This document shows positions 509 to 61,314 of a stretch of 64,000 nt of DNA, piece by piece. The notes beneath the pieces were generated by a model that saw nothing but the letters and a program-made list of their open reading frames with translations, had not been told where the DNA came from and searched no databases. Source of the stretch: a bacterium (lineage in GTDB: Bacteria; Zhuqueibacterota; Zhuqueibacteria; Residuimicrobiales; Krinioviventaceae); the NCBI GenBank assembly GCA_963674595.2, contig CAXXFV010000003.1, positions 192,001 through 256,000 on the forward strand, written 5' to 3'. Each line of letters begins with the position of its first letter. The stretch's first letter is position 1. The position numbers were made by a program, and so were the translations under genes.

Positions 509-520
509 ATTGAGACATAT

Positions 521-7021: not shown

Positions 7022-7190
7022 CCAATTCCCATCTTTTAATTTTTTTTAAAAGAACTTGAACTTTTATCATATAATTTGTACCATATTTAATAAGTCATAG
7101 AGAATTATTTTTCAAGATAACTAAAAAACTAAATATTTCTGAGACCTGATTCTCATTTTGACTGATTTTCCATTTTTCAAATACGGGTCT
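7022..7190 (+). repeat. Degenerate copy (D) of dispersed promoter + leader element
   Basis: TTGAAC(7056)-17-TACCAT(7079); 21-nt TTTCCATTTTTCAAATACGGG (7167-7187) identical to 47328-47348. Confidence 0.7.
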
Positions 7191-7320
7191 TTAAATTATA
7201 TGTGAAAAATTGTCACACCTGACTGACATTTTTCATCTTAAACTTTTGTATAGTTAAGAATTACGGCACTAAACATCGATGCCATAATAATTTCATTTCA
7301 TTGATAACGTGGAGAAAATT

Positions 7321-16984: not shown

Positions 16985-17037
16985 TCAAAAATATTTACCA
17001 AAAACCTCTTGCGCCCATTCAATATAATTTGTATTAT
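16985..17037 (+). promoter_or_regulatory. Member of repeated promoter family
   Basis: CAAAAACCTC-TTGCGC(17009)-17-TATTAT(17032) with ATAATTTG before -10. Confidence 0.7.
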
Positions 17038-17380
17038 TTATTCTTCACTATTGATGAAAAGTCGGTTTAAAAATAATAATTATTCCAGGTAAACAACAGG
17101 CAATCATGCCGATACAAAAACGGATTTTAATAAATTATACAAAACTCTTGTTTCGGATTTATCACTGTATTTTATAATTAAAATTGCAATATAGTTCCAT
17201 CTGTTCATATTGGATTTTTTATTATCACAAGGTTGAATCATTTAATAATAGGAGAAATAAACGGACCGAATGTTTGACATCTTGTTCTAACGAAAACCAC
17301 ACTAATACAGTAAAAGCTAATAATTTAATCGTTTTTTTATCAAAAACATAAGAAACCATAATATTAATAATGGAATATTA

Positions 17381-23047: not shown

Positions 23048-23100
23048 ATCTCAATATTTTTCAAAAACCCCTTGCTCTGATTTCATATAATTTGTACTAT
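23048..23100 (+). promoter_or_regulatory. Member of repeated promoter family
   Basis: CTCAATATTTTTCAAAAACCCC-TTGCTC(23072)-17-TACTAT(23095). Confidence 0.75.
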
Positions 23101-23217
23101 TAAGCGTCATTAAAAGCCGGTCATTATAAACGGCAGATACTCATATACATGCTATTCGAAAATTGTGTTCTTGAAAATCTTGAATAATGATACATTAAAC
23201 CGGAAAAGGAACAAAGA

Positions 23218-24705
23218 ATGAAAAGCAGCCTGGATTGGATTGTTGTAACAATATATGCTCTTGGAATGCTTGCAATTGGGTTCTATTTCAAACGCAAGAC
23301 AAAAACAACCGACGACTATATGTTGGGCGGCCGGAAAATGAAATCATGGAGCGTGGGTCTCTCTCTGTTTGCCACGCTGTTTAGCGCAATCACTTATCTG
23401 GCTATGCCGGGCGAAATGGTCAAACACGGTCCGATGATGTGGAGCAAAATTGCCTGCCTGCCCTTTGTTTACGGCGTTGTGGGCTGGTTTTTAATCCCGC
23501 ATATTATGAAACTTCGTGTATCAAGCGCTTATGAGCTGCTGGAAGTACGTCTCGGCGTTAAAATCCGAACTCTGGCGTCTGTGTTCTTTCTGCTCATGCG
23601 TTTGATTTGGATGGCTGTCATTATTTTTATGGTCGCTGAAAAAGTGATCGTGCCTATTATGGGATGGTCGGAAGGAACAGCGATTTGGGTGAGCATTGCA
23701 CTTGGGCTGTTTACAATAGCATATACCTCCCTGGGAGGCTTACGTGGTGTTGTACTGACGGATGTCATTCAGAGCTTTATACTGTTCGGCGGAACAATTC
23801 TGGCAATAATTATCATCACCAGCCATTTTGGCAGCTTTTCAGCAATGATTCCAACCCAATGGCCTGCACATTGGGCACCCTGGAAGTTTTTTGATGCCAA
23901 TGCCAGGGTGAGTTTTATGACCATGAATATTGCCGTTTTCGGCATGTATGTGTGTACGGCAGGCTCGGACCAGATGTCGATCCAGCGATATTTATCCACC
24001 CGGGACGCCAAAGCCGCACGAAAAGCATTTCTTACGTCGCTGATCGCAAACGGCGTGGTCTATATTATGCTGGCAGTATTGGGAATCGCCCTGATGGCCT
24101 ATTACCAGGCAAATCCGGGTTTTATTATGGAAGGTGAAACCTTGACCTCAGCGGCTGACTCGCTATTGCCGCATTTTATTGTGAATGGCTTTCCAATCGG
24201 TATATCTGGACTTGTGTTTTCAGGACTGCTTGCCGCTGCAATGTCCAGCCTGTCATCGGGTATCAATTCGTCCAGTTTGGTTGTAATCAATGATTTTATT
24301 ATCCGATTCAAAAAGCAGGAATTATCTCAGGATACACAGGTAAAATGGGCGCGGCTTATTTCAGTGGCAATTGGACTGGTCATTATTCTGCTCAGTTTTG
24401 TTATGGACAATGTCAGCGGTAACCTTATCGAGATCACCTTTAAAACAGTCAACCTGCTGATAGCACCGCTCTTTGTTCCGTTTTTTATGGCTATGTTTAT
24501 CAAACGCTCCGTTGAAAATGCGGTGGTGATCGGTACGGTCATCAGCGCATTGACGGCAACTTTTATCAGCTTTTCAAATGAGATGTTTGGATTATCCATT
24601 TCATTTTTATGGATTTTACCGGGATCATTTGCAGTAGGTGTGGTGGTCAGTTATTTGTTGAGTTTTGTGTTACCTGATAATAAAATAAAATATGCGGAAG
24701 GTTAA
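23218..24705 (+). CDS. Sodium:solute symporter (SSS family)
   Basis: DYMLGGR, SAYELLEVRLG, YTSLGGLRGVVLTDVIQ, DQMSIQRYL, AAAMSSLSS. Confidence 0.93.
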   Translation: MKSSLDWIVVTIYALGMLAIGFYFKRKTKTTDDYMLGGRKMKSWSVGLSLFATLFSAITYLAMPGEMVKHGPMMWSKIACLPFVYGVVGWFLIPHIMKLRVSSAYELLEVRLGVKIRTLASVFFLLMRLIWMAVIIFMVAEKVIVPIMGWSEGTAIWVSIALGLFTIAYTSLGGLRGVVLTDVIQSFILFGGTILAIIIITSHFGSFSAMIPTQWPAHWAPWKFFDANARVSFMTMNIAVFGMYVCTAGSDQMSIQRYLSTRDAKAARKAFLTSLIANGVVYIMLAVLGIALMAYYQANPGFIMEGETLTSAADSLLPHFIVNGFPIGISGLVFSGLLAAAMSSLSSGINSSSLVVINDFIIRFKKQELSQDTQVKWARLISVAIGLVIILLSFVMDNVSGNLIEITFKTVNLLIAPLFVPFFMAMFIKRSVENAVVIGTVISALTATFISFSNEMFGLSISFLWILPGSFAVGVVVSYLLSFVLPDNKIKYAEG

Positions 24706-37851: not shown

Positions 37852-38556
37852 TTGAAAGAACGGGTATTTACAAGAGATGAATTTCTTATAAAAACACAAA
37901 CCTCAGAACATGATTTAGCACTTTGGGAAAAGAATAAATTAATTCAATCCATGGGATTCACAGAAGACCAGACACCCATTTATTCACAACCTGCAATTGA
38001 GCAGGTAGAACAGATAAAAAAGTTACAGGAATTGGGATATGATCTGGATGGCGTGCAAAAGATTATTAAAAAAGTGGGATTACCCCAACAATCCAAATCC
38101 GGTAAAGACAGCAGCAAAGGCAAACAATATATTACTGTTGGCAATTTAGCAGAGCGAATTGGAGTAAGCCCCCGAACGCTTAAACATTGGGAAGACAAAG
38201 GTATCATCGTGCCGGATATGCGAAGCGAAGGCGGTTTTCGGCTTTATTCAGAACACTATGTTTATCTATGCCATTTGATTCAGGATTTACAATTGTTCGG
38301 TTACTCTTTAGAGCAGATAAAAATCATATCCGATTATTTTCGAGAATTCCTGAGGTTGGATACATCCCTCGAATCCATGCCGGCACAGGAAGCTGAAGAA
38401 AAATTGAATGAGATGTCCGGAGAAATCGATCAATTGATAAAAAAAATTAATAGTTACAAAGAAGGCATTCAGCGCTGGGAAGATTTATTAAAAAATAAAA
38501 AGAAACAGGTCCAGGGTTTAAAAAACAAAAATCAAAAACGAAAGAATGAAAAATAA
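37852..38556 (+). CDS. MerR-family regulator with two HTH domains
   Basis: LALWEKNKLI..LQELGY and VGNLAERIGVSPRTLKHWEDKGII..GGFRLY..LQLFGYSLEQI; RBS GGAG + TTG. Confidence 0.9.
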   Translation: MKERVFTRDEFLIKTQTSEHDLALWEKNKLIQSMGFTEDQTPIYSQPAIEQVEQIKKLQELGYDLDGVQKIIKKVGLPQQSKSGKDSSKGKQYITVGNLAERIGVSPRTLKHWEDKGIIVPDMRSEGGFRLYSEHYVYLCHLIQDLQLFGYSLEQIKIISDYFREFLRLDTSLESMPAQEAEEKLNEMSGEIDQLIKKINSYKEGIQRWEDLLKNKKKQVQGLKNKNQKRKNEK

Positions 38557-39829
38557 AATGATTTGTTCTCAGCTCATTTCTGTTCCGCCAAACCAGGCCC
38601 CCGCTATACACGCGGCACATCATCCCTGCTACCAGGATGATTATCAGCGTTTACACCATCTTTACCATTCATTGCAGCCGGGCAAAGCCGTAAAAAAAGA
38701 CGGCCTGATCATTGAAAAGATGCCTTTTCATTCCGAACATGCATTGGTCACCAAAACTCAACCGGACTATACCATGAACCGGTCATTTAAGGCGCTTTTC
38801 CAATACTACCTGGCTCAAAACACCTATTCAAATCAATATATTTTTAAAAGCCTGCAAGTGTCTGATGCGGATGTTTTAGAAAATCAAAATTTCCAGCTCA
38901 TTCTGCTGAGACCCAGTTCCGAATTTCCAATCCGCAAAGTGATTGTTATGCTCCACGGCTTAAACGAAAAGTCCTGGGACAAATACCTTCCCTGGGCAAA
39001 TGATCTGGTCCGTCGTACCGGGGCGGCCGTGCTTCTTTTTCCCACGGCCTTTCACATGGACCGTGCGCCGGAAACCTGGAGCAGTCCCAAATTAATGCGA
39101 CAGGTGGCAAAAGAACGGGAATCCCTGTTCCCGGAAGTAACACATGCTACGTTTGCCAATGCGGCCATCAGCCACAGATTGCAATTTGCGCCGGAACGGT
39201 TTCTGACGTCAGGGATACAAACCTATCACGATATTATTTCTCTTTCCTGGCAAATCCGGGGCGGGCAATTTTCATATATTGATAAAGATGCTGATATTGA
39301 TTTTTTCGGATATTCTGCCGGCGCGTTTCTGGGAGAAATTTTAATGATGGCCAGCCCTTCGCAACTGTTTGATGGTTCTAAATTATTCATGTTCTGCGGA
39401 GGGGCAACCATGAACCAAACCCATCCTGTTTCCAAAATGATCCTGGACAGCGAAGCCAGCGAATCCCTGACTGTATACCTGGATTCTTTTGAACGACAGG
39501 GCCATCATACCCCGCTGCCGATGGAATCACATCTTTTTTTCAAAGCCATGCTTCACGAAAGCCAGAATCCCGAATTCAGGGCAAAACGCTTTGCTGAAAT
39601 CGGAGCGCGTATTTTTGCCGTTGGTTTGGAAAACGATACGGTTATTCCGGCTGAAGCCATCAAAAGAACCATAACCGTACCGGGTGAACAAATTCAAAAC
39701 ATGACGCACCTGGATTTCGACCATCCCTATACCCATGAAAATCCCTTTCCTGTTGTTGAAAAATATAAATCCGACATTCAAAAATCCTTTGAACAGGTTA
39801 TGACACTGGCGGCCGATTTTTATCTGTAA
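38546..39829 (+). CDS. DUF6051-like alpha/beta hydrolase-fold protein
   Basis: MLHGLNEKSWDKYLPWA, LLFPTAFHM, FGYSAG, FMFCGG, YTHENPFP; overlaps merR stop. Confidence 0.75.
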   Translation: MKNKMICSQLISVPPNQAPAIHAAHHPCYQDDYQRLHHLYHSLQPGKAVKKDGLIIEKMPFHSEHALVTKTQPDYTMNRSFKALFQYYLAQNTYSNQYIFKSLQVSDADVLENQNFQLILLRPSSEFPIRKVIVMLHGLNEKSWDKYLPWANDLVRRTGAAVLLFPTAFHMDRAPETWSSPKLMRQVAKERESLFPEVTHATFANAAISHRLQFAPERFLTSGIQTYHDIISLSWQIRGGQFSYIDKDADIDFFGYSAGAFLGEILMMASPSQLFDGSKLFMFCGGATMNQTHPVSKMILDSEASESLTVYLDSFERQGHHTPLPMESHLFFKAMLHESQNPEFRAKRFAEIGARIFAVGLENDTVIPAEAIKRTITVPGEQIQNMTHLDFDHPYTHENPFPVVEKYKSDIQKSFEQVMTLAADFYL

Positions 39830-39855
39830 ATACAGGCACTCTTATAATCACCTCC

Positions 39856-40108
39856 AAAAAAAAATACAATCATTCTCAACATTTTTCAAAAAGCACTTGC
39901 ACTGTTTTTAAATTATATGTATTATTAATGTATCAGTAATATTATTTATTTCAGAATAATTTATCGAGCATGGGAATTACTGATACGCTTATTATTTTCT
40001 AATTGCAAATTATGGGATTTAAAAACACATACAAGGAAGAGATCGCCTGTTTTTTAGCATCATATCCCTGTTCTTTCTAATATAAATTATTGGGTCAAGT
40101 GTGTTCGG
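39856..40108 (+). repeat. Copy A of dispersed promoter + structured leader element
   Basis: TTGCAC(39897)-17-TATTAT(39920); IR GTATCAGTAAT/ATTACTGATAC (39930-39986); alignable with 41710-41972 and 47212-47452. Confidence 0.85.
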
Positions 40109-40242
40109 TTATTGGCATAGATTGACTGAATTGTTTTTCAGACAAATAATAATGTTTATAATTTTTATTTATTGAAAAACATTTTAACAGAAATGTACAC
40201 AAACCCGTCTCTCGAATTTAGTATTAAAAAAATTGGAGGCAA

Positions 40243-41487
40243 ATGATGTCGAAATCTAATTACCTGCTGATATTAATCTTTTTGTTCAGCCTGAGCTGTC
40301 AGAAAGACAACAATCCGGTTGACAGTAATGAGGTTAACGGCAAAGATGATACAATTGATATCAGCGTAAAAGAATCCAATTTATATGTAAATCTTGTATT
40401 TACTGACTCGACTTTTAGCGATTTAAATGGAGTACCGGTACGAATAGAAGGCGCAGTCTCTGATACACAAAAAACAGACGGCTCGGGAATTGCCTGGTTT
40501 AAATCAATACCAACCGGAAATTATAATGTTTTTATTGACATCTCTTATTTCAAGCCATATTCATCAAACATTGTAGTGACGGACCCGGCTACTCAACTAA
40601 AGGTCAATTTACAAAGACTTTATACAAATTTTAACGGAAAAGTGGTTGACCCCGTGGGGAAACCGGTTTCCAATGTAAACGTCTCCTTGTATTTAAATGA
40701 TGAGTATTTTTATTTAAGTAGAAAGCCCAAAACCATTGGAAATTTTGTAACTGATTCATTAGGTAGTTTTATAGATTCTCTGCCAAATGGAGAATACAAA
40801 ATTGAACTTTCCAAAGAAAATTATATTGACGCAACCTTTCAAATTAACATTGATTCCTCCACGGCAAACACTGACTTGACCATCTCAAAAAAACCAAGTA
40901 TAGATTATTTGCCCTTGCACGTAGGTAATAAATGGACATATAAAGATATTTATACATCGGGTGATCCGATTTATGTTTATCAAAAGTTTATTTCAACATA
41001 CCGGGTTGAGGTAATTTCAAGGGATGAGGCGCCAAATGGATTTAAATACACTCTTTCTCATTCCAAACAGGGGACAAAAATCAGTTATAATTACAGTAAT
41101 GGAATTGATTCTACACAAGTCAGCTATGAAGACGAGTGGCTAGATGAAATAGTTGTTAAAACCGACAGCATTTTAGGCGGATATCCTGCGTGCCGTTTAC
41201 TGCTTAATTATTTTGCAATTGGAGATAATTGGGAATACGATTGGGATTATTATATTAAAGCACAAAATTTTAGTTCATTTGAATTAAACGGCACGACCTT
41301 TCCTTCGGTAGTGCTTAGGATTTCATCCATAATTGGGATGAATTTTTATGAAAATTATGAGTATGCAGGTGACATTGGTTTGGTAAATTTTGAATACTAT
41401 AGAAAAATTGGTCATAATGAAGTTTATAAACGAAAAAGCACACTGGAAGGTGCAGAAATACTCGGAAAAACAACCTGGCCTGATTAA
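40243..41487 (+). CDS. Lipoprotein with carboxypeptidase-regulatory-like Ig domains
   Basis: LSC lipobox; two transthyretin-like repeats; YLPLHVGNKWTY C-terminal domain start; RBS GGAGG. Confidence 0.82.
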   Translation: MMSKSNYLLILIFLFSLSCQKDNNPVDSNEVNGKDDTIDISVKESNLYVNLVFTDSTFSDLNGVPVRIEGAVSDTQKTDGSGIAWFKSIPTGNYNVFIDISYFKPYSSNIVVTDPATQLKVNLQRLYTNFNGKVVDPVGKPVSNVNVSLYLNDEYFYLSRKPKTIGNFVTDSLGSFIDSLPNGEYKIELSKENYIDATFQINIDSSTANTDLTISKKPSIDYLPLHVGNKWTYKDIYTSGDPIYVYQKFISTYRVEVISRDEAPNGFKYTLSHSKQGTKISYNYSNGIDSTQVSYEDEWLDEIVVKTDSILGGYPACRLLLNYFAIGDNWEYDWDYYIKAQNFSSFELNGTTFPSVVLRISSIIGMNFYENYEYAGDIGLVNFEYYRKIGHNEVYKRKSTLEGAEILGKTTWPD

Positions 41488-41709
41488 CTTTTTTAACAGT
41501 CGGCTATTACTATACCCCATATTTATGCCCGGAAAATTCCGATCTCCGGGCATCGGTAAACAGCTTGGCGTATCCATGTATAAGGCATCTTTCTCAAAAA
41601 CATTGTAATAAGATAGATATATAGTTGGGTTCAGCTCATAGGTTCCACTTTCCAAGGGGCTGAACAGTAGAATAATCAAAATTGTAAAGTGTTAACATTT
41701 TATATCCAT

Positions 41710-41972
41710 AAAAAAATAACAATTCCATTATTTTCAACATTTTTCAAAAACCACTTGCGCTAGTTTTAAATAATATGTATTATTCTCTTATCAGCAAAAG
41801 TTTTTTCAGGACGATTGGTCGAGCATGGGAGTTCCTGATGCTCTTTTAGCTGATTTTCTATAATTTAAATATGGGATTAAACTGTACATGCAAGGAAAAG
41901 ATTGTAATTTTTTGAGAATCATATTCTTGGTTATTTATACATTAAATTATTGGGCTGGGAGAGGTGTGTTTG
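41710..41972 (+). repeat. Copy B of dispersed promoter + structured leader element
   Basis: TTGCGC(41755)-17-TATTAT(41778); TTTTTCAGGACGATTGGTCGAGCATGGGAGTTCCTGAT nearly identical to copy C. Confidence 0.85.
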
Positions 41973-42111
41973 TGTGTAAGATAGATTCACATAAAAAATG
42001 ATAATAGTACCACATGTATTATAACATGTCTTAAAATCATATAATAGTAAAAGGCCAAGCTTCTCCTAAATCAAAACCTACAAAATAACAGATTACACAA
42101 TAAGTTGTAAA

Positions 42112-42636
42112 ATGAAAGATTTTATAATGGACATTATCAAAATAGCTACCTCTGGCATATTTGGTATTTTAGGTATATTACTTGGATACTTTTTAAGCCG
42201 TAATAGTACCCAAAAAGCAGTTGACATGTCATTTGAAAAATTAAACATTATTATTGACAAACAAGAATTTATACGAGCTGCAAATAAGTTTCGTAATTCT
42301 TTTATAAAAGAAATCGTAGAGCTTGAAAAAATGGGTAATAATCCCCCCAAAGAAAGTGTTTATAAAGTTTTATTCGCTGCTCGTGATAGACATAAAAATG
42401 CAATGATAGATTTCAGATATTTCTTAAAAGGAGCTGATCTCGACAAATTCAATCAAGCTTGGATAGATTTTTCTGGAGATGATTATGAGAATCAAAATTT
42501 TAAAAAAAGTTATCAACAATATGATGTAAATGAAAACATAGAAAATATTTCTGAATTTGCATTGAAAAAACTAGCAATGAAAAATATAGATAAATTACTT
42601 GATTTTTCTAGACTTGAAAATCATAAAACCATATAA
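42112..42636 (+). CDS. Hypothetical protein with single N-terminal TM helix
   Basis: 174 aa, AT-rich; GIFGILGILLGYFL helix; 7 nt upstream of the SIR2-like gene. Confidence 0.75.
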   Translation: MKDFIMDIIKIATSGIFGILGILLGYFLSRNSTQKAVDMSFEKLNIIIDKQEFIRAANKFRNSFIKEIVELEKMGNNPPKESVYKVLFAARDRHKNAMIDFRYFLKGADLDKFNQAWIDFSGDDYENQNFKKSYQQYDVNENIENISEFALKKLAMKNIDKLLDFSRLENHKTI

Positions 42637-42643
42637 TAATAAA

Positions 42644-43555
42644 ATGATCCAAAAAAACACAGTGATTATTCTTGGGGCTGGGGCCAGCAAACCATATAAT
42701 TTCCCTCTCGGAGTAGAACTGCGAGATGAGATAATAAAAATAGGTGCAAATGATCGTGGACTAGAAGCTACTTTTTTTTCACAGATTACAGGATTTGATT
42801 CAGGATACCTATATAAATTTACAACAGATTTATCTAAATCTGGTTATTCTTCAGTCGACGCATTCTTAGAAAACAGGCCTGAATGGATTGAAATAGGAAA
42901 GCATACAATTGCACATAAACTGTTTTTTTATGAAAAAAATGCAAAATTATTTCCACCTGAACAACCAAAGGACCATTGGTACGAAACTTTATGGCATAAT
43001 ATGATGGCTCCAACGTGGGAAGAATTTAAATTAAATAAATTACAAATTATTACTTTCAATTATGATCGTTCTTTAGAACATTATCTATCAACTATTTTAA
43101 GTAACAATTATAATATCTCTAAAGAAGAGATAATTCCCTCATTACCAATTATACATGTTCATGGTGATTTAGGTTCTTATAAAAATTATGGGAACCACTC
43201 CTTTGAAAATATAAAATTTGCAGTTTCTTCTATAAAAATTGTACATGAAAGTAATAATTCTACAAAAGAATTTAAACTAGCTGATAAAATCATAGAAAAC
43301 GCGAAGTCAATTCTATTTATTGGATTTGGATACCATATACAAAATTTGATAAAATTTAAATTATTTAAATCTTATTATGAAAATCCCAGTTTAGCATTAC
43401 GGCATCAATATAACAATCTTTTAGGTACTCACAGAGGAATTAAGTCTAAAGCATGGACTAAAATTTGTGGACGATTTAATTTTTCAAGAGAAGCAAAAAA
43501 TCAAGGTGGTGGTTCAATATCGGAATTTTTATCCGAATCGTTGGATTTAGATTAA
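42644..43555 (+). CDS. SIR2-like (SIR2_2/AbiH-type) domain protein, candidate NADase
   Basis: VIILGAGAS..FPLG, IITFNYDRSLE, IIHVHG, LFIGFGY motifs. Confidence 0.8.
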   Translation: MIQKNTVIILGAGASKPYNFPLGVELRDEIIKIGANDRGLEATFFSQITGFDSGYLYKFTTDLSKSGYSSVDAFLENRPEWIEIGKHTIAHKLFFYEKNAKLFPPEQPKDHWYETLWHNMMAPTWEEFKLNKLQIITFNYDRSLEHYLSTILSNNYNISKEEIIPSLPIIHVHGDLGSYKNYGNHSFENIKFAVSSIKIVHESNNSTKEFKLADKIIENAKSILFIGFGYHIQNLIKFKLFKSYYENPSLALRHQYNNLLGTHRGIKSKAWTKICGRFNFSREAKNQGGGSISEFLSESLDLD

Positions 43556-43795
43556 TAAAAAAAGCCATACTTTAGATACTCGAATAAAAATGTATTGCTT
43601 TCCACCTAACCCCAATCATCCAAAACTCGATCTCCCTTACCGCAAAAATATCGAGTGCGTTCTAAAATTATCTTGAAGCAACTGACATTTTTCACTACAT
43701 TGTGCCTTAAAAATAATTGAAACAAATCCGGGCTGGAAATTTTGGTCCGGTTTTTTATATCCATAAAAATAATTCTATCTCAACAAGGACTTTTC

Positions 43796-44692
43796 ATGCT
43801 GCAAACCCATCTCGGAGAAATAGCCGCCCTGTTAACCGCTGTTTTTTGGACCGCTACGGCCCTGTCTTTCGAAAAAGCAGGCAAACTGATCGGCTCGTTG
43901 GCTGTAAACTGGATCCGCCTGGCAATGGGCCTGGTGTTTCTCTCCATTTTTACATTGTTCACCAGGGGCATGCTTTTTCCTGTGGATGCCACAGCCCATG
44001 CCTGGCTCTGGCTTGGCATTTCGGGATTAATCGGTTTTGTCATCGGAGACGTCCTTTTATTTCAGGCATTCGTACTGATCGGCTCCCGCGTCAGCATGCT
44101 GATTATGGCGCTGGTCCCCCCTATTACCACTTTAATCAGTTGGTTTATGATGGGCGAAACATTGACGGGCACAGACTTGTTAGGTATGGGCCTGGTTGTC
44201 AGCGGGATTGCCCTGGTGGTGCTTGAACGTCCAAGCGGAGAGAAAAACATCAAGCTGTCACACCCTGTTTCCGGACTTTTGTTTGCTGCCGGCGGCGCTG
44301 TCGGACAAGCCGTGGGATTGGTGTTCAGCAAGTATGGTATGGGCGATTACAATGCCTTTGCCGCCACCCAAATTCGGGAATTTGTGGGTCTTTTGGGCAT
44401 GAGCCTGCTCTACTTTCCTTTAAGGGCATGGGGTAAAGTGGGCCTGGGATTTAAAAATAAAAAGGGCATGCTTTATACCACCAATGGTGCCTTCTGGGGT
44501 CCTTTTCTGGGGGTTAGCTTCTCACTGTTGGCCGTTCAGCACGCCCTGGCCGGTGTGGCCTCAACCATCATGTCCATTGTGCCGGTGCTTATTATTCCAC
44601 CCGCCATCATTTTCTTTAAAGAAAAGGTCACGGTAAAAGAAATGACGGGCGCAATGATCGCCGTCATTGGAGTCGGATTGTTGTTTTTATAA
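43796..44692 (+). CDS. DMT/EamA transporter
   Basis: GEIAALLTA..W, SGLIGFVIGD..LF.AF..IG, FKEKV; about 10 TM. Confidence 0.9.
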   Translation: MLQTHLGEIAALLTAVFWTATALSFEKAGKLIGSLAVNWIRLAMGLVFLSIFTLFTRGMLFPVDATAHAWLWLGISGLIGFVIGDVLLFQAFVLIGSRVSMLIMALVPPITTLISWFMMGETLTGTDLLGMGLVVSGIALVVLERPSGEKNIKLSHPVSGLLFAAGGAVGQAVGLVFSKYGMGDYNAFAATQIREFVGLLGMSLLYFPLRAWGKVGLGFKNKKGMLYTTNGAFWGPFLGVSFSLLAVQHALAGVASTIMSIVPVLIIPPAIIFFKEKVTVKEMTGAMIAVIGVGLLFL

Positions 44693-45088
44693 AAAATTTG
44701 AACTATACAATTTAAAAAAATTGATCACCCAAATGGCTGCCTTATCTGCGGTCGTATAAAAAAAGTACCGCCTTTACAGGTATAAACCGATATATCGATG
44801 AAACGTTTCAATATTGATATTGCCGATTCCCTCCCTGAGATTGTCCTGAAATAACCTAATCGAATTTTATAATTTAATACTTTCCTTAAATTTAGGTTGT
44901 ATCATTAAAAAACAATTATTAAAATAATCGACGGAAATTAAAATTTTACTCTGAAAAATAGTAAAAATTAGTGCTTTTATTTTTGATCAATGATATTCTA
45001 TAAAATTTAAATAATGGTAACGGATTCGGAATTTCAATTTAAAAAGCAGGCAAAGACCTGTTTGACAAAATTGTTAACAGGATCGGTT

Positions 45089-47047
45089 ATGGGCAACAAA
45101 TTATTTATAAAAAACATTATTTTTGTATTATTTTTAATTACAATTACAAATTGTAATATGGCTTTTTGTGCTGAAGAGCCGGTCCTCAAATGGAATTACA
45201 ACCAACCTCCGTTAAAATGGGGATACAACGATTTGAATAATGACGGCACTCCGGAAACATTATTGTATACATGGAACGGGAAAACGGTAATTTTTGTCAA
45301 CGATGACGGTCAACTACCCTGGAGCGCTGAACAGGAAAATCAGGACTGGAATGCCTATTTTAATAAAGCATTTAATGTAGAACAAAATCCACCGGTTATG
45401 TGGAACCCGATACGCAATAACTGGGGTAATTATACAATTTTAGTAGACAAGGACAGCTCAGGCAGATTTGACGACAACAATGACTTTTATTACAAAGCAA
45501 TGGACCTGAACAATGACGGGCAGCCGGAAGCAGAATTTTTAGTCCCTTTTCCGGGTCGTTCCGTATGGGGCAAACCATACTCAGCAAAACTGCATATCAA
45601 CCTGAACGGTGAAAACGATATGTGCTACCTTTCCTGGAAAGATTTTTTCTACCCGGATGAACAAACGTATACAGACGGCTTCAAATACATTATGAACATC
45701 CACGGCAGCGGCCTGTTTATGAATTGCTATCGTGCCGATATCATCAAAAGCTGGGAGAATCCAATTGCCTGGTATGACTTTGATTTTGACGGACGAACGA
45801 ATATGGTGATGCGATGTGCGGACACATTTCCCGGCGAGAATGGCCATAGAGGAGCAATCGGAGAAGCAGAATTTGCCTTTGAACTAAATTCCAAAACTTC
45901 TGAAAAGCTTTGGAGTGCTTTGGATTTACAATTGACATACTATGACAGTACGCAGGGTTTTGATATTTCCAAATATGCCGACAGAATTGAAAAAATTAAA
46001 GGCCTTAAAGAAGCCGATTTTTTATCCGAAAAATTACTGGCCCATCGGCAGGAAGCGCTTAGGCTGACGGTACCTTACCTTGACGGTTATATGATAATGA
46101 CAGATTATAACGACTGGGAAGGGGCCTGGTTTATTTTTGATGAAGACGATGAAGACGTCCGCTGGGAGGAGATGTTTAGCGTTCATGAAAAAATTAACGG
46201 CGAGTTTTCCGACCGAATCGGCGACCGCTGGGAACACGACAAAGACTTTTCCGGCAAAGGAAAGCTTTATGTTGGAAAATTTGACGGCAGAATCCATTTG
46301 TTTGGGGCGGATGAAGGATATTGGGAGATAGACTACCTGGGTTTATATCATGGAAGTTGTGACCGGGGAAAAACCAAAGAAGGCCCGAAACCGCCAAAAG
46401 GTTTAAAATATCCGTTGGTACGATATTACGACAGTGATAAAAATGGATTTATCGATAAAATAGAATATTCAACGGTTGAATATCAAAATGAAAGACAATC
46501 AAAAAATGTGGTCAAAATCATCAATCTTTTTGATTATGTCACAGCCGAAAATCCACATCCAGATGTATGTGAACTGTTTAATCCAAAAGTAGATGTTCCA
46601 TTAAAAGGATTTAAAATAGAAAACTGGGATGCCCAGTCCTTGCAAGCAAAAGATTTTGAAAACAGCCCAATCAAAGCAGCCTATGATAAATTTTATAAAT
46701 TCTATGGAACTGTTGGTGAAAATCTCTGGAACGATGCGGAAAAATTATATGCCGTTGCAAAAAAACATAACCTTAACCAAAGTGAAAATGCGGACAAAGA
46801 TTTAAAAATCCATTATACCAGGGAAAAATTATCAACATTTAAGGTACTTGATATTCCTTCGGGTTACTCCAGACATTTACAGGCAAACGAAAGACACGAA
46901 AAATATAGGAACGGTTTTTGGCTAAAAGAAAAGGTCTTTGACGATATATTAAAAGCACTTTCGGATGAGGAAAAAATTCAAGCATGTAGTTATTATTACC
47001 GGAATGAAACAGACAGCCTTTGTAAATATTTAGACAGCAGGTTTTAA
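45089..47047 (+). CDS. Secreted hypothetical protein with repeated DxDxDG-type Ca2+-binding loops
   Basis: DLNNDG (twice), DKDSSG, DFDFDG, DSDKNG; signal peptide; start could be 45014. Confidence 0.78.
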   Translation: MGNKLFIKNIIFVLFLITITNCNMAFCAEEPVLKWNYNQPPLKWGYNDLNNDGTPETLLYTWNGKTVIFVNDDGQLPWSAEQENQDWNAYFNKAFNVEQNPPVMWNPIRNNWGNYTILVDKDSSGRFDDNNDFYYKAMDLNNDGQPEAEFLVPFPGRSVWGKPYSAKLHINLNGENDMCYLSWKDFFYPDEQTYTDGFKYIMNIHGSGLFMNCYRADIIKSWENPIAWYDFDFDGRTNMVMRCADTFPGENGHRGAIGEAEFAFELNSKTSEKLWSALDLQLTYYDSTQGFDISKYADRIEKIKGLKEADFLSEKLLAHRQEALRLTVPYLDGYMIMTDYNDWEGAWFIFDEDDEDVRWEEMFSVHEKINGEFSDRIGDRWEHDKDFSGKGKLYVGKFDGRIHLFGADEGYWEIDYLGLYHGSCDRGKTKEGPKPPKGLKYPLVRYYDSDKNGFIDKIEYSTVEYQNERQSKNVVKIINLFDYVTAENPHPDVCELFNPKVDVPLKGFKIENWDAQSLQAKDFENSPIKAAYDKFYKFYGTVGENLWNDAEKLYAVAKKHNLNQSENADKDLKIHYTREKLSTFKVLDIPSGYSRHLQANERHEKYRNGFWLKEKVFDDILKALSDEEKIQACSYYYRNETDSLCKYLDSRF

Positions 47048-47211
47048 TTTCCCCTTGATGATAGGATGAATGAAACATTATAACGGTAGTAATGAGCTAA
47101 AAATGGGTACAGTTGTGGGTCTGGCCCATTTTTTTACTCTATAAAATAATAAACGAACATATAATATTCATGCATACCACTTCACCCACTCTCTTAAAAA
47201 ATCTAATAGTA

Positions 47212-47452
47212 TAAAAATCCCTTGCGCTGATTTTGAATAATTCGTATTATTCTTTTATCAGGGATAAATGATAATTTTTCAGGACAATTGGTCGAGCACG
47301 GATGTTCCTGATTTACTTTTATCTCACTTTCCATTTTTCAAATACGGGATATAACAGCACACACGAGGAAGAGACGGCACTTTTTAAAAAGCCAGCTTTC
47401 TCTAGTTAATGAACTAAATTGTTGCTGGGAAAAATATAAATAATGTGTTTAG
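47212..47452 (+). repeat. Copy C of dispersed promoter + structured leader element
   Basis: TTGCGC(47222)-17-TATTAT(47245); ATCAGGGAT(47257)/GTTCCTGAT(47304) stem. Confidence 0.85.
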
Positions 47453-47517
47453 ATAAAAAGTATATGAAAATGATTTGATAATTAACAACTCTAATTCGAC
47501 AAGTTGGGGAGAAACCA

Positions 47518-49413
47518 ATGAATGGACTAAAAAAATCTGTATTAACAACTATCTTGTTGTTATTAATATTTTCATGTAAAAAAGATCTTTCCACTGATTA
47601 CAAGAAAACAATCAGTTATCCTGTCTATATTTCAACGATTGCTGTTCCTCATACAAACTGGATGTGGCAATATCCCAAACCCCAGGGCAATACACTTAAT
47701 TCCGTATTCACAATTAATGAAAATGAAATTTGGGCGGCTGGTGAAGCCTCAACAATACTACATTCAAAGGACGGCGGTAAAAACTGGTCAGTAAAATCAT
47801 TTCAATCAGAGGAAAGCTTTTTTGATATTTTTTTTCTGAACGAAAATATCGGCTGGCTGGCCGGAACAAACGGCATCATTTTCAACACATTGGATGGCGG
47901 TGAAAGCTGGCAGTCACAATTACTGGATGTTAATAACTGGGTAATCAGTATTTACTTTATCGACGAAAATAATGGATGGGCTGTAGGTTATGATGGCTTG
48001 ATTGCAAATACAATTAACGGCGGAGAAACCTGGCACACAAGTTTTTATAGCGGCGCTACCTGGTTTTATTGCGTTTATTTTCAAGATATAAATCATGGGT
48101 GGATCGTCGGTGACAAAGGCACAATTCTTTATACAGACAATGGCGGCAAGACGTGGGACAAACAATCCTCCGGTACCACGGAAAAACTTGACGATATATG
48201 TTTTATAGAAAACAAAGGATGGATCGCCGGTCATTCCGGAGTGGTTTTGTCCTCTGCCAATAATGGAAAAAGCTGGCATCAGGCTGGTAATACGAATTCC
48301 AACAGAAATAGCAGCATTGTCTTTACCGATCAAAATAATGGCTGGATTGTTGGTAGGCGGTCGGATAATATTTTCCACACAACAAATGGTGGGAATACCT
48401 GGACGGCTCAATCAATTGATGGGTTTGAAGGTCTTTTATCTGTTTCCTTTATTAATGAAAATAAAGGATGGGCAGTCGGTAAAAACGGACTGATGTTCTT
48501 TACCGAGGATGCCGGCGATACCTGGCAAATGTTTTCAACACATCGTAAAACAGAGTGGTTTGAAAGCATTTTCTTTATCGATTCGAAATTCGGGTGGACT
48601 GCCGGCGGCAGAGGTGAAATTCTATGCACAACAGACGGCGGACAAAACTGGGATGATATATCTCCGGACATTACCCACAATCTTTGTGATATATTTTTCC
48701 TGGATCACAACAACGGCTGGGCTGTAGGCGGTTCATTGGGTAAAGATATTATCATTCACACAAATAATGGTGGTAAAAACTGGGACATCCAATCTGTTGA
48801 TACCTATAGTTATCTGAATAGTGTTTTCTTTATTGACCAAACAACCGGGTGGGCAGCGGGCACGGATGGTACTATTTTACATACTGAAAATGGGGGTGAG
48901 AACTGGACAGATCAATCTCCCGGAATTGATATATGGCTGGAAACCATCCAATTCCTGGACAAAAATACAGGCTGGGCCGCCGGTCACGGCAGAACAGTTG
49001 AAGGACACAAAAGTCACATTTTTCACACAAAAGATGGCGGTATAACATGGTCTCCTCAAATAATAAATTCAAGTTATATCTGTGATATTTATTTCAAGGA
49101 CACACAAAATGGCTGGGCAGTCGGCACTGATAGATATATTCATTATACAAAGGACGGCGGGCAAACATGGCAGGAAAGCCAGAATTTTAACGAAATTAAC
49201 TTATTAAATAGCGTATGTTTCGCAAATAATTCTACGGGATGGGCAGGCGGTTACCATGGAAGGATGTTTAAAAGCACAGATGCGGGTAACCATTGGGACC
49301 TTCAATTTATAAATACCTGTACAGACATAAATTCGCTTTATTTTATGGATGATAAAACAGGATGGCTGGTTACAACAAATGCAATTTTGCATACAACCAC
49401 AGGTGGTGAATAA
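47518..49413 (+). CDS. YCF48/BNR-repeat beta-propeller lipoprotein
   Basis: FSC lipobox; about 14 repeats of F.D...GW.VG..G.I..T.DGG..W. Confidence 0.9.
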   Translation: MNGLKKSVLTTILLLLIFSCKKDLSTDYKKTISYPVYISTIAVPHTNWMWQYPKPQGNTLNSVFTINENEIWAAGEASTILHSKDGGKNWSVKSFQSEESFFDIFFLNENIGWLAGTNGIIFNTLDGGESWQSQLLDVNNWVISIYFIDENNGWAVGYDGLIANTINGGETWHTSFYSGATWFYCVYFQDINHGWIVGDKGTILYTDNGGKTWDKQSSGTTEKLDDICFIENKGWIAGHSGVVLSSANNGKSWHQAGNTNSNRNSSIVFTDQNNGWIVGRRSDNIFHTTNGGNTWTAQSIDGFEGLLSVSFINENKGWAVGKNGLMFFTEDAGDTWQMFSTHRKTEWFESIFFIDSKFGWTAGGRGEILCTTDGGQNWDDISPDITHNLCDIFFLDHNNGWAVGGSLGKDIIIHTNNGGKNWDIQSVDTYSYLNSVFFIDQTTGWAAGTDGTILHTENGGENWTDQSPGIDIWLETIQFLDKNTGWAAGHGRTVEGHKSHIFHTKDGGITWSPQIINSSYICDIYFKDTQNGWAVGTDRYIHYTKDGGQTWQESQNFNEINLLNSVCFANNSTGWAGGYHGRMFKSTDAGNHWDLQFINTCTDINSLYFMDDKTGWLVTTNAILHTTTGGE

Positions 49414-49562
49414 AAAAGATGTGCTGGTATTCATTATAAAGCTTTTGTATTTCATCAATAATTATCTAGCTGGACTCGGCCTTTAGGCTACGTTATAAGT
49501 AATAAATATCAGAACGTTCGAAGACATTTTTAAAACAAAACGTAAAAAAAGTGAGGAATACA

Positions 49563-50069
49563 ATGAAACGCTTATTCCTGTACAGATTTTATTTAATCTA
49601 TTTGTTACTTTTTTTCTTTATCAATTGCGAAAAAGATACAGTTACGGTTCCTGATGAATTAAAACAAGAGTCTGAAATAATTGATACAAGCCAGCATTCC
49701 ATGATGATTCATCTGGACAAAACAGAATACAAAAAAGATGAAATTGCCAAAATAACTGTTACAAACATTTTAAAAAAAGATTTAATTTTAGGCCACTGTG
49801 CTTTTAATATAGGATTTGACATTGAAAAAAGAATAAATAGAAAATGGGAAATGCCTTATACAGTAACCTGCCTTGCAATAGGAGAGCCGTTTTATATAGC
49901 ACAAGATTCAACATTAAAAGGCTCGATTCATTTTCCAATTTTTGAAAATGAACTTGACAGCGTCGAAGGTTATTACCGTCTTAAATTATGGCTCCAAGAT
50001 GCTCAAGAAAGAACTTTGATAGCTGATTCTTTAAGAGTATCAGATCCTATTAAAATAGTATCTGACTAG
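49563..50069 (+). CDS. Hypothetical lipoprotein, Ig-like
   Basis: FINC lipobox; LDKTEY..G.YRL pattern. Confidence 0.72.
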   Translation: MKRLFLYRFYLIYLLLFFFINCEKDTVTVPDELKQESEIIDTSQHSMMIHLDKTEYKKDEIAKITVTNILKKDLILGHCAFNIGFDIEKRINRKWEMPYTVTCLAIGEPFYIAQDSTLKGSIHFPIFENELDSVEGYYRLKLWLQDAQERTLIADSLRVSDPIKIVSD

Positions 50070-58953: not shown

Positions 58954-61038
58954 TCAGGCTGCAAAGGTTTGACGTAAATCAAATTCGGCTTTTTTGCCGT
59001 CATTCCATTGATTTATCGGGCGCAAATAGCCGACAACCCGTGAATAAATCTCACAAGAACTGGAACATTTTTCACAAACTGCCACTTCTCCCGAAATATA
59101 ACCGTGATTTGGACAGACACTGAATGTCGGCGTTAGAGTAAAATATGGTAAATGATAATTTTCACAAATCTTTTTTACCATGTTTTTCACGCTTTCAGTT
59201 TCTTTAATTCTTTCACCAAGGAAAAAATGTAAAACCGTACCGCCGGTGTATTTCACCTGTAAATCATCCTGCAATTCCAGGGCCTCAAAAATATCGTCCG
59301 TAAAATTGACAGGCAATTGTGTCGAGTTGGTATAAAACGGATTCTTGACATCTTTACCCTGTCCATTGCCAAAAATGGCTTTCTGAAATTGCTGCTGGTC
59401 CAAAAGCGCTAATTTATACGATGTCCCTTCTGCCGGCGTTGCTTCCAGGTTGTAATTATTTCCGGTTTCTGTCTGAAAATCGATAATAACATCGCGCATA
59501 AAATCCAAAACATCCTCTGCAAATTGTTTCCCTTTTGCGGAGGCAATATTTTTTCCATAAATATTTTCTATGGCCTCGTTCATACCCACAACGCCGATTG
59601 TGGAAAAATGGTTCTTCCAAAAATTGCTGTGCTGTTCTATAATATTCCTTAAATAAAATTTTGTATAGGGATAAAGATTACAATCCGTAAAGTGTTCCAA
59701 AACTTTTCTTTTAATTTCCAGACTGTCCCTGGCAATGACCATAAGCTCCCTAAGCCGGTCCATAAACTCTTTTTCACTTTTGGATTTTAATCCAATACGG
59801 GGTAAATTTATCGTTACAACGCCGATAGAGCCGGTTAAAGGATTGGCACCAAACAAACCGCCGCCGCGTTTTTCCAACTGCCTGTTATCAATCCTTAACC
59901 GACAGCACATGGAACGAGCGTCATCCGGGCTCATATCTGAATTCACAAAATTCGAAAAATAGGGCAATCCATATTTACCTGCTGCTTCCCACAATAATTC
60001 ACTCGATTCGCTGTCCCAATCAAAATCTTTGGTAATATTATATGTTGGAATTGGAAAAGTAAAAACACGCCCGCTGGCGTCGCCTGCAATCATAACTTCC
60101 AAAAAGGCCTTGTTAAACATGTCCATCTCTTTTTGAAAATCCGCATAGCACTCGTTTTGCGGCATGCCGCCAATAATAACCGCCTGTTCAGCATAATGTT
60201 TTGGGACCGTCAAATCCAGCGTAACGTTTGTAAAGGGCGTTTGAAAACCAACCCGGGTAGGTACATTCAGATTAAAAAGAAACTCCTGAATGGCCTGTTT
60301 AACTTCTTTGTATGTCAAATTATCATAGCGGATAAACGGGGCAAGTAACGTGTCAAAATTACTAAAAGCCTGGGCACCGGCTGCTTCGCCTTGCAGGGTG
60401 TAAAAAAAGTTCACAATTTGTCCCAATGCGGCACGAAAATGCTTTGGCGGTTTGCTGGTAATTTTGCCTTCAACGCCAGTGAACCCTTCCATCAACAGGT
60501 CCCACAGATCCCATCCCACACAATAAACGGAAAGTATGTTCAGGTCATGAATATGAAAATCACCATCAGTATGGGCCGCCCTAATATTTTCCGGATATAT
60601 TTTATTAAGCCAATAATTTTTACTGATTTCACTGGAAATATAATTGTTCAATCCCTGCAACGAATAGGACATGTTACTGTTTTCTTTTACCTGCCAGTCT
60701 GTTTTGTAAAGATACTTTTCAACCAAACCATTGTTAACAGCATTGGTAAGTTCACGCAATTGTTTATGCTGGTCCCGGTATAATATATAGGCCTTGGCGG
60801 TCCTTTTAAACTTTGAATCCAACAAAACATCCTCTACAATATCCTGTATCTGTTCGACCTGGGGAATATTGTCGTGAATGATTTGTTCGGCCAGGAGCAA
60901 CACCTTTTGAGTCAACCGGCCTGCCCTAACAACATCAAACTCTCCCGTTGCTTTTCCGGCTTTGGCAATCGCCTGAACAATCTTGTTTTCGTCAAAATCG
61001 ACAATCTGATCATTGCGTTTTTTAATCTGTTTGAACAT
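58954..61038 (-). CDS. nrdD: Class III (anaerobic) ribonucleotide reductase with ATP cone; true start 61038
   Basis: IKKRND ATP cone, HIHDL, SMCCRL, EATPAE, YSRVVGYLRP; RBS GAAAGGA; ORF-track extension runs through the riboswitch. Confidence 0.95.
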   Translation of the reverse strand: MFKQIKKRNDQIVDFDENKIVQAIAKAGKATGEFDVVRAGRLTQKVLLLAEQIIHDNIPQVEQIQDIVEDVLLDSKFKRTAKAYILYRDQHKQLRELTNAVNNGLVEKYLYKTDWQVKENSNMSYSLQGLNNYISSEISKNYWLNKIYPENIRAAHTDGDFHIHDLNILSVYCVGWDLWDLLMEGFTGVEGKITSKPPKHFRAALGQIVNFFYTLQGEAAGAQAFSNFDTLLAPFIRYDNLTYKEVKQAIQEFLFNLNVPTRVGFQTPFTNVTLDLTVPKHYAEQAVIIGGMPQNECYADFQKEMDMFNKAFLEVMIAGDASGRVFTFPIPTYNITKDFDWDSESSELLWEAAGKYGLPYFSNFVNSDMSPDDARSMCCRLRIDNRQLEKRGGGLFGANPLTGSIGVVTINLPRIGLKSKSEKEFMDRLRELMVIARDSLEIKRKVLEHFTDCNLYPYTKFYLRNIIEQHSNFWKNHFSTIGVVGMNEAIENIYGKNIASAKGKQFAEDVLDFMRDVIIDFQTETGNNYNLEATPAEGTSYKLALLDQQQFQKAIFGNGQGKDVKNPFYTNSTQLPVNFTDDIFEALELQDDLQVKYTGGTVLHFFLGERIKETESVKNMVKKICENYHLPYFTLTPTFSVCPNHGYISGEVAVCEKCSSSCEIYSRVVGYLRPINQWNDGKKAEFDLRQTFAA

Positions 61039-61057
61039 GGTTTTCCTTTCGGGATTA

Positions 61058-61088
61058 AACAAAAAAAACTCGGCCAAAGCGCCAAGTT
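61058..61088 (-). terminator. Attenuator terminator in the nrdD leader
   Basis: Minus strand AACTTGGC-GCTTTG-GCCGAGTT followed by T-run, between aptamer and start codon. Confidence 0.8.
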
Positions 61089-61136
61089 CCTGTGTAATCC
61101 AAATGGCTTGACGCGAACCAAAAGCGGACCTTTTTA

Positions 61137-61213
61137 GGTTCATTGTACAGGGTCGGACTATAACCGTTGCGCGACAGTACCGGAATTTCACCGGATTTCA
61201 CCATACAAACCGC
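61137..61213 (-). ncRNA. Cobalamin riboswitch (short class II/variant type)
   Basis: Minus strand TTGTATGGTGAAATCCGGTGAAATTCCGGTACTGTCGCGCAACGGTTATAGTCCGACCCTGTACAA: T-loop hairpin, CTGTCGCGCAACGG hairpin, AGTCCG B12 box, closing P1. Confidence 0.88.
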
Positions 61214-61314
61214 TTTAAATTTTCTTATATTCTATAATTTATTGTTTATAAACAAGACCTCTTAATTCCTATTACATATTTATTTTAACATCCGTTCCGG
61301 TACAATAAACACAA

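Follow-up and report, generated by a model that had tools for sequence, protein, structure and literature searches.

Why do unrelated genes of one bacterium carry nearly the same stretch of DNA in front of them? The question is raised by a window of 64,000 nucleotides (C3:192001-256000, C3 being a contig of the source assembly), in which three intergenic regions, A, B and C, and a degenerate fourth, D, had been aligned in an original prediction made from the sequence alone, and had been read as a shared promoter followed by a structured leader RNA. Here we describe the element behind this likeness, a module of about 280 bp made of a promoter and a folded leader, which is present in about 92 copies in the 6.6-Mb assembly (37 contigs; 97.6% complete, 5.1% contamination). 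On balance, we regard it as a probable lineage-specific device that supplies genes with a promoter and a hairpin-stabilised 5' untranslated leader, and that serves also as a boundary between gene units. Every copy analysed is a paralogue within this one assembly, whose nearest relatives by RpoB (71%) are metagenome-assembled genomes labelled candidate division KSB1.

The alignment of A, B and C is real. It runs from about 20 nt 5' of a CTTGC block to about 230 nt 3' of it, with D aligning weakly, and the 21-nt identity between C and D is confirmed (TTTCCATTTTTCAAATACGGG). In addition, all the blocks listed in the original prediction are conserved family-wide, in a consensus built from 69 full-length copies. 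D proved to be a genuine, degenerate member, and the four regions belong to a far larger family. Specifically, a BLAST search of the assembly with copy B as query gave 42 matches, a profile of A, B and C found 95 places, and an iterated profile (nhmmer) gave 126 matches on 20 contigs, 93 of which extend past model position 120 and are counted as carrying the leader, while 28 lie within model positions up to 100 and contain the promoter only. With a covariance model and a threshold of E ≤0.01, 92 places were recovered, the four regions of the window among them. Because profile and covariance searches recover 92 to 126 genomic places, a chance origin of the likeness between A, B and C is excluded.

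Between contigs, the identity of copies averages 61% (maximum 82%), and neighbouring copies less than 6 kb apart are more alike (mean 77%). In pairwise comparisons, homology sets in around -30 to +3 and is lost gradually between +170 and +240, with no sharp common edge. The distribution is uneven: 44 of the 93 leader copies (47%) and 55 of the 126 profile matches (44%) are on four contigs that account for 9.5% of the assembly, and the strand bias of the copies is strong within each contig.

The consensus starts with an A-tract, CTTGC, an invariant 17-bp spacer and TG-TATnAT, followed by a bulged, nested hairpin of 65-75 nt composed of helices P1a, P1b and P2. P1a begins about 7 nt after TATnAT, at the predicted 5' end of the message, so that the first paired base is the predicted first transcribed base. 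The 5' side of the hairpin reads (A/G)TCAG.. AAAGGAC .. UUUUCAGGAC, the loop of about 20 nt contains GGUCG..CAUGGGAG, and the 3' side reads GUUCCUGA .. GUCCUUU .. GCUGAUUU(A/U)CCA. Two conserved single-stranded blocks, CUGAUUU(A/U)CCA and AUACGGGAU, come after the hairpin, and the 3' part then continues with ACGAGGAAGAGAUUG, about 18 nt, AAUCAUAUUCCUGUUG and the G/T-rich UUGGGUUGGGUG.GGUGUG. This 3' half includes a nearly invariant Shine-Dalgarno (SD)-like block, GAGGAAGAGA, with a TTG, which lies well upstream of the cargo start, itself about 100-300 nt 3' of the G/T-rich end. Consensus positions outside the conserved blocks are close to saturated. From this conservation, and from the promoter-only matches, 27 of 28 of which face a co-oriented gene, we infer that the module acts as promoter of its cargo genes; the layout of A-tract, CTTGC, 17 bp and TG-TATnAT may be the organism's general strong-promoter form. 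A G-quadruplex at the G-rich end was considered and rejected, four G3 runs being found in only 2 of the 69 copies.

As to the fold, the hairpin proposed near the predicted +1 is present, compensatory changes included, and its outer partner had to be revised: across the family ATCAG pairs with the second CTGAT (GCTGATTT), not with CCTGAT. The ATCAG/CCTGAT pairing holds for copy A, which is atypical and has no second CTGAT. Likewise, the internal TCAGGA does pair with TCCTGA, not as an alternative fold but as the regular inner helix P2. Standard alignment tools failed on this domain because the length of a T-run shifts the register of P1b and of the inner stem, and therefore an alignment-free test and a model-guided alignment were used. 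In the former, the pairing of two strands of the same copy was compared with that of strands drawn from different copies, in 5000 permutations. P1 strands paired with a mean of -10.4 against -8.5 kcal/mol (z -6.6), and the variable inner part of P1 and P2 gave z values of -4.3 and -5.0; in none of these three cases was any of the 5000 permutations as good. Two unrelated control segment pairs gave z 0.3 and -1.0. When the same statistic was run over all 10-column window pairs, P2 and P1 came out on top, and nothing else in the leader did.

The alignments gave a comparable result. In a MAFFT alignment of 50 copies, 84.1% of the cells pair in the structure named above, against 34-50% with slid partners; the corresponding values for 60 copies in the model-guided alignment are 86.1% and 26-49%. 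In the latter, two-sided changes occur in 19 of 28 pairs (shuffle mean 11.0; 0 of 500 shuffles as high) and in 82 cells (shuffle mean 37.7), and they hit all seven P1b and all six P2 pairs. The model-guided alignment is biased towards the structure, which the alignment-free test and the window-pair scan are not. When the 5' domain was folded in isolation, the nested hairpin was obtained in 12 of 15 copies (z -3.3 to +0.4, mean about -1.5). These data show a covarying hairpin at the predicted start of transcription, and they indicate that paralogues inside one genome can yield enough covariation to back an RNA fold without relatives. G-U/U-G cells number 131 and A-C/C-A cells 66 (P1a 41:12, P2 18:6, P3 41:16, P1b 31:32); because G-U outnumbers A-C by about 2:1, this bias points to the transcribed strand folding as RNA. 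The weaker second stem of the original prediction, here P3 (AGGAA..GATT/AATC..TTCCT), is conserved as well, with 88-92% of cells paired, but almost without covariation (alignment-free z -1.4; 412 of 5000 permutations as good). It pairs the SD-like block and the start partly with codons 7-10 of a short reading frame.

This frame begins at the TTG, which is retained in 47 of 54 copies, and has a median length of 33 codons (10-90% range 12-70). Of 32 copies, only one has frame 0 interrupted by a stop within codons 2-13, whereas the other two frames are interrupted in 10 and 13; the consensus itself is open in all three. Over the same codons, pN/pS (the ratio of nonsynonymous to synonymous differences) is 0.89 in frame 0 and 0.70 and 0.79 in the other two, and on this value of 0.89 peptide-level constraint was rejected. 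Among the changes in the most conserved codons, CAT ATT CCT GTT (HIPV), synonymous ones number 19 and the remainder 22, the expected synonymous share being 25%. The substitution pattern indicates that the frame is kept open though its peptide is not under protein-level selection. From the end of the short frame to the start of the cargo gene the median distance is about 100 nt, and in two of 47 copies frame and cargo form one continuous reading frame. The organism does use SD sequences, with GGAG, GAGG or AGGA 4-20 nt from the start in 37 of the 74 larger cargo genes.

A co-oriented gene lies downstream of 88 of the 93 leader copies (95%), at a median of 140 nt from the match end, compared with about 57% expected from the mix of intergenic types. 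Gene calls here are crude open reading frames (ORFs). Among 74 downstream ORFs of at least 100 aa, 47 carry Pfam families, and these differ widely. The C-terminal sorting domain of type IX secretion (T9SS) occurs in eight cargo ORFs. Also represented are TIR, GmrSD, Schlafen/AlbA_2, KAP NTPase, caspase, AAA_21 and an SNF2 helicase, Gp49-type toxins (two), sensor kinases or response regulators (four), a radical SAM protein, a methyltransferase, a beta-lactamase-fold protein and a tyrosine recombinase, together with an IS200-like protein that NCBIfam NF047646 identifies as a REP (repetitive extragenic palindromic)-associated tyrosine transposase, or RAYT (85.5 bits, cut-off 80). By a crude rule, 27 of the 74 have a signal-peptide-like N-terminus. 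Altogether, the module is carried by about 1.5% of the organism's genes. The genes behind A to D are indeed unrelated, as had been stated: they are of the CarboxypepD_reg/PEGA, membrane plus SIR2_2-like, BNR/YCF48 and T9SS types. The notion of a portable promoter-leader module, offered earlier as one of two options, is in line with some 92 copies, their co-orientation, the diversity of the cargo and one strain-variable unit described below. The family members of the window and the genes behind them are as follows.

39880..40110, + strand: copy A (atypical); covariance model 82 bits
39897-39902 (TTGCAC), 17-bp spacer, 39918-39925 (TG+TATTAT), + strand: predicted promoter of copy A
39930-39986, + strand: 5' hairpin of copy A; SD-like block at 40031-40045, with the TTG start replaced by TCG
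40243..41487, + strand: gene behind A, CarboxypepD_reg/PEGA-domain lipoprotein-like protein
41735..41977, + strand: copy B; covariance model 126 bits
41755-41760 (TTGCGC), 17-bp spacer, 41776-41783 (TG+TATTAT), + strand: predicted promoter of copy B; predicted +1 at about 41790
41790-41854, + strand: nested hairpin of copy B; P1a ATCAGC/GCTGAT, P1b AAAAG/CTTTT, P2 TCAGGAC/GTTCCTGA
41890-41904, + strand: SD-like block and TTG of copy B; stop at codon 2
41917-41929, + strand: 3' arm of P3 of copy B; G/T-rich end at 41946-41977
42112..43555, + strand: two genes behind B, encoding a membrane protein of 174 aa and a protein of 318 aa whose SIR2_2 match is weak (E 9e-4, below the cut-off)
47205..47455, + strand: copy C; covariance model 122 bits
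47222-47227 (TTGCGC), 17-bp spacer, 47245-47250 (TATTAT), + strand: predicted promoter of copy C
47257-47327, + strand: hairpin of copy C; outer stem GGGATAAA/TTTATCTC, P2 TCAGGAC/GTTCCTGA
47363-47377, + strand: SD-like block of copy C, with CGG instead of TTG; P3 retained via a compensated GGC/GCC
47518..49413, + strand: gene behind C, BNR/YCF48-like repeat lipoprotein
7048..7251, + strand: copy D, degenerate member (nhmmer E 1.8e-7 at 7048-7195; covariance model E 0.005 at 7088-7251), 5' of the gene of a T9SS C-terminal-domain protein, 7309-8199
16995..17042, + strand: promoter-only relative, model positions 3-50 only
23056..23117, + strand: promoter-only relative, model positions 1-63, 5' of a sodium:solute symporter gene, 23218-24705

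The module appears confined to this lineage. With the covariance model, the 40 relatives searched (18 from the same family and 22 from the same order) yielded no copy, and neither did a set of 150 genomes from 25 families of the phylum, this one excluded, for which the filters were stricter and few candidates per genome were scored. A pattern scan of 185,579 species genomes returned 86 stretches, reduced to 80 loci, whose best model matches were coding sequence and were set aside as chance; a pattern scan of metagenomes gave 0 matches, and plasmid and phage collections gave none. These collections may omit records of the window's own or very near genomes. The family could not be recognised in the original prediction, and this agrees with Rfam: the six best copies had 0 matches at E ≤1, an E-value scan of 39800-42150 returned only noise (E ≥0.46), and a scan of the whole window with Rfam 15 at gathering thresholds reported only an AdoCbl-II match and none to the module. 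At the level of literature listings and abstracts, no description of such an element was found in KSB1 or elsewhere.

The reading that we favour rests on a conserved, directional, high-copy unit in front of genes, with a covarying hairpin and a short frame kept open behind an SD-like block. RNA polymerase would start at the module, and the hairpin at the extreme 5' end would block 5'-end-dependent decay. Ribosomes loading at the leader SD and the short frame would cover the long leader and protect it from nucleases and Rho; accessory or newly acquired genes would in this way receive a ready-made, insulated expression signal, while P3 and the several GGA motifs of the leader would allow an added translational control. 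The copies would double as portable homologies or boundaries of about 250 bp, at which units of leader and gene are gained, lost or joined to mobile DNA. Stabilisation and insulation of the message are proposed by analogy with 5' stem-loop and STAB-SD stabilisers. If this is true, one bacterium expresses new genes through a reusable promoter, a cap-like 5' hairpin and a ribosome-loading site. The leader would then mark accessory units and make the flexible genome of an uncultured phylum readable, besides offering a natural compact expression part and a test case for repeated leaders that double as recombination anchors.

Several observations weigh against this reading. The conserved promoter is missing from the listing of a generic sigma-70 scan, because its -35 element matches TTGACA at 3 of 6 positions only, and all statements on where transcription starts, on the transcript itself and on translation of the short frame are predictions from sequence. 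RNAalifold, a check proposed with the original prediction, gave no pairs on plain MAFFT alignments of 69 and 60 copies, and plain mutual information on the alignment was uninformative; the covariation emerged from the alignment-free and model-guided tests. The repeated change of Watson-Crick type in the best pairs, 7-12 times, speaks for the hairpin, but it was counted on a FastTree tree of the 3' half alone, a weak tree of about 130 columns, and all copies are paralogues of one genome. The folding energy of the whole leader is close to that of shuffles (z 0.06, -0.16 and -1.15 for three leaders). Both the alignment-free test and the window-pair scan found no covariation in P3 and the entire 3' half; because this half is conserved all the same, the constraint on it could lie on the DNA or on a bound factor instead. 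Translational coupling from the short frame to the cargo was rejected as a rule, the frame ending near the cargo start in 3 of 47 copies. Moreover, because the frame is broken in A (TCG), B (stop at codon 2) and C (CGG), it is dispensable at least in these three copies. Finally, the sole case of presence and absence between strains, described below, could be a simple deletion between repeats.

Among the other explanations, a regulon-wide sensing leader, riboswitch-like or bound by a protein or a small RNA (for example CsrA at GGA), would place about 90 genes under one signal, with P3 gating the leader SD. The near-invariant single-stranded blocks set between variable stretches in copies only about 61% identical are in line with it, as are the pairing of SD and start with codons 7-10, the at least five GGA motifs of the consensus in a genome that has a csrA gene, and a cargo enriched in defence-like and secreted proteins. 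We nevertheless consider it unlikely, since the 3' half shows neither covariation nor an alternative pairing, no conserved terminator or antiterminator was seen, and P3 acts on the SD of the short frame and not on that of the cargo, whose start is 50-400 nt further on. Unlike known riboswitch classes, the module is confined to 1 of 151 genomes of the phylum, with no copy in the other taxa searched, and the GGA count is no test of CsrA binding. The hairpin could instead be a single-stranded DNA signal for a transposase such as RAYT, in a non-autonomous mobile element with an outward promoter, of the kind of miniature inverted-repeat transposable elements (MITEs), palindrome-associated transposable elements (PATEs) or REP doublets (REPINs), the co-orientation having come from later selection. 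High copy number in a single lineage, strong strand bias, clustering on four contigs and a RAYT gene with a leader copy on each side would fit. The consensus ends (TTTTTCAAAAA.. and ..TTGGGTTGGGTG) are not complementary and form no inverted repeats, as those of MITEs and Correia elements would; neither a target duplication nor an att-like repeat was found, duplications not having been searched copy by copy. At most 82% identity between contigs, with a mean of 61%, argues against a recent burst, the G-U bias favours RNA, and random insertion would hardly yield 95% co-orientation at so regular a distance. The copies beside the RAYT gene are whole 240-nt modules, direct and not inverted, each before its own gene. 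We therefore rate a mobile element as quite improbable.

A family of trans-acting small RNAs, free transcripts of about 200-230 nt, which the original prediction had entertained, would share with our reading the own promoter and the structured 5' domain. It is very hard to reconcile with the rest of the data: no conserved intrinsic terminator was seen, the consensus ends G/T-rich, a terminator scan of the A-B region found none at the 3' edge, 88 of 93 copies are followed by a co-oriented gene, towards which the conserved part continues, and in two copies the short frame continues into that gene. Signs of a leader-peptide attenuator were also looked for: the open frame is kept, the consensus has no downstream hairpin or T-run, and the one region scanned showed none. 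Lastly, substitution patterns of a decayed protein-coding 5' end had been named as evidence against the original prediction. Limited traces of this kind exist, as the 3' half reads as an open frame behind its SD-like block and TTG, and one copy encodes the N-terminus of an integrase, with a K-L-L matching PKLLDQ. That the copies are functionless decayed 5' ends of a duplicated gene, such as an integrase gene, is however largely refuted and barely tenable, given a pN/pS near 0.9 in all three frames, a promoter and hairpin conserved as strongly as the frame, an 89%-identical integrase with a different N-terminus and 80 integrase loci without the leader.

Known systems resemble the module in part. 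The Correia elements (CREE) of Neisseria are reported (PMC2649163) to be short, high-copy, lineage-restricted intergenic repeats that can supply a promoter, place a hairpin in the 5' untranslated region of the adjacent gene and thereby alter its expression. The module likewise combines a high-copy, lineage-restricted repeat, a predicted promoter and a hairpin in the predicted 5' untranslated region of its neighbour. CREE have terminal inverted repeats, promoters at their ends, and are targets of RNase III and IHF, whereas the module has no inverted ends, one internal directional promoter, an SD with a short frame, and 95% co-orientation. In the ompA-type 5' stem-loop, the cryIIIA STAB-SD and the aprE leader, a stem-loop at the very 5' end, combined with an SD-like sequence far upstream of the real start codon, protects the message. 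The module would have both features, its stem-loop lying at the predicted 5' end; those leaders each serve a single gene, whereas the module recurs at about 92 loci, with a putative stabilising effect. REP and REPIN sequences are palindromes of about 20-40 nt that flank a RAYT gene as inverted pairs, whereas the module copies beside the RAYT gene are 240 nt long, in direct orientation, 92% alike and each before a gene. This RAYT gene (182 aa) lies at C23:96534-98761 (- strand) between the two leader copies, the second of which precedes a KAP NTPase gene.

JUMPStart/ops, a 12-nt DNA signal, is a leader element shared by unrelated accessory operons and read by RfaH-type NusG paralogues. The module is similarly a conserved leader common to unrelated accessory genes, but no dedicated NusG factor is evident here: this candidate was rejected, as the sole paralogue lies inside a polysaccharide locus. 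That gene (C7:125341-125865) is a second member of the NusG family, adjoins a GNVR/tyrosine-kinase-like gene, and resembles the locus-specific antiterminators of Bacteroides capsule loci.

The integron platform, with its Pc promoter and an attI with the short ORF-11, also sets a promoter-bearing sequence and a short frame before exchangeable unrelated genes, and one copy of the module does lie on an intI gene. The recombinase encoded there is a true integron integrase (TIGR02249, 454 bits; cut-off 265), whose ORF begins at the leader's own TTG, so that the leader gives the first 17 or so codons. An 89%-identical homologue in public data differs in its N-terminus up to the conserved (K)LL(E/D)Q, where the leader ends; the K-L-L of the leader-encoded N-terminus matches the PKLLDQ conserved in integron integrases. 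Because this homologue differs and because the leader is absent from 80 metagenomic integrase loci, the sequences indicate that the integrase is an acceptor of the module, not its donor, and gained from it promoter, start codon and about 17 codons. Two canonical attC sites (R' GTTAGGT/GTTAGGC, about 130 nt) lie downstream of intI, followed by a CRISPR array and cas1. They are unrelated in sequence to the leader, and the copies of the module are spread over 20 contigs and not in one array. The module as an attC or attI site was rejected; its outer stem is ATCAGC/GCTGAT, and GTTRRRY occurs in only 21 of 69 copies, at the 3' edge. In locus coordinates of C3:107000-126999, intI is at 8821-9813 (- strand), the attC-like sites at about 7290-7130 and 6140-6000, the CRISPR repeats, which adjoin the integron, at about 4900-4600, and cas1, also adjoining, at 16-768 (+ strand). 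The whole is a small chromosomal integron, with the integrase co-oriented with two cassettes (a T9SS protein and a DUF5677 protein).

A repeated phage-like element (at least 13 kb; gpA-type terminase, RecT, Lin1244-like; 85-95% identity) has a leader copy as its last 200-230 nt or so in four cases, that of the integrase included. Its homology stops at leader +196 to +228, with a different gene after each end: the integrase, a sensor kinase, a TIR protein and a small ORF. Comparison of the right junction with the body of the element revealed no att-like direct repeat. The element lies at C3 about 116.8-132 kb and C10 about 52-67 kb (at least 13-15 kb), and in part at C9:142263 and C25:5521.

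Strain differences were assessed by aligning contigs of four public runs to 38500-49600; joints with a small side (e.g. 41760>47255) come from other copies of the family and were ignored. One informative difference was found among the four runs. A contig of run X4, from another sample and about 99% identical, joins 39855 to 41714 and thereby lacks one unit.

39856..41713, + strand: unit of leader A, gene 40243-41487 and 3' spacer; absent from the X4 contig

Specifically, 38690-39840 is joined to 41714-44691 through 17 letters equal to 39839-39855 with one change, and the junction falls in the run of A that borders leaders A and B on their 5' side. The case fits either a deletion between two leaders or the insertion of a unit. 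A bolder proposal is that the module is the handle of a non-integron cassette system, its units being exchanged between loci, strains and phage-like elements, and that it also subjects some 90 genes, for defence, toxins, secretion and recombinases, to a common switch acting at the RNA level; we regard this combination as doubtful.

At C29:44500-52300, five leader copies are packed 1-2 kb apart before genes that include an outer-membrane beta-barrel protein, two near-identical Gp49-type toxins and a Schlafen/AlbA_2 protein. Of the four copies on the + strand, three were measured at 92-95% and the fourth is 96% identical over about 1 kb, whereas identity to them drops to about 70-74% in the fifth, which has the opposite orientation. 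Such likeness points to duplication or gene conversion at this locus.

The spacer after the gene behind A (41488-41700) holds two hairpins, GCCCGGA..TCCGGGC and GTTCAGC..GCTGAAC, with GTTGGGT preceding the second. Elsewhere in the window, the AdoCbl-II (cobalamin) riboswitch match lies at 61145-61215 on the - strand (38.1 bits, gathering score 36.5), where it overlaps the annotated start of a same-strand ORF of 745 aa, 58954-61191.

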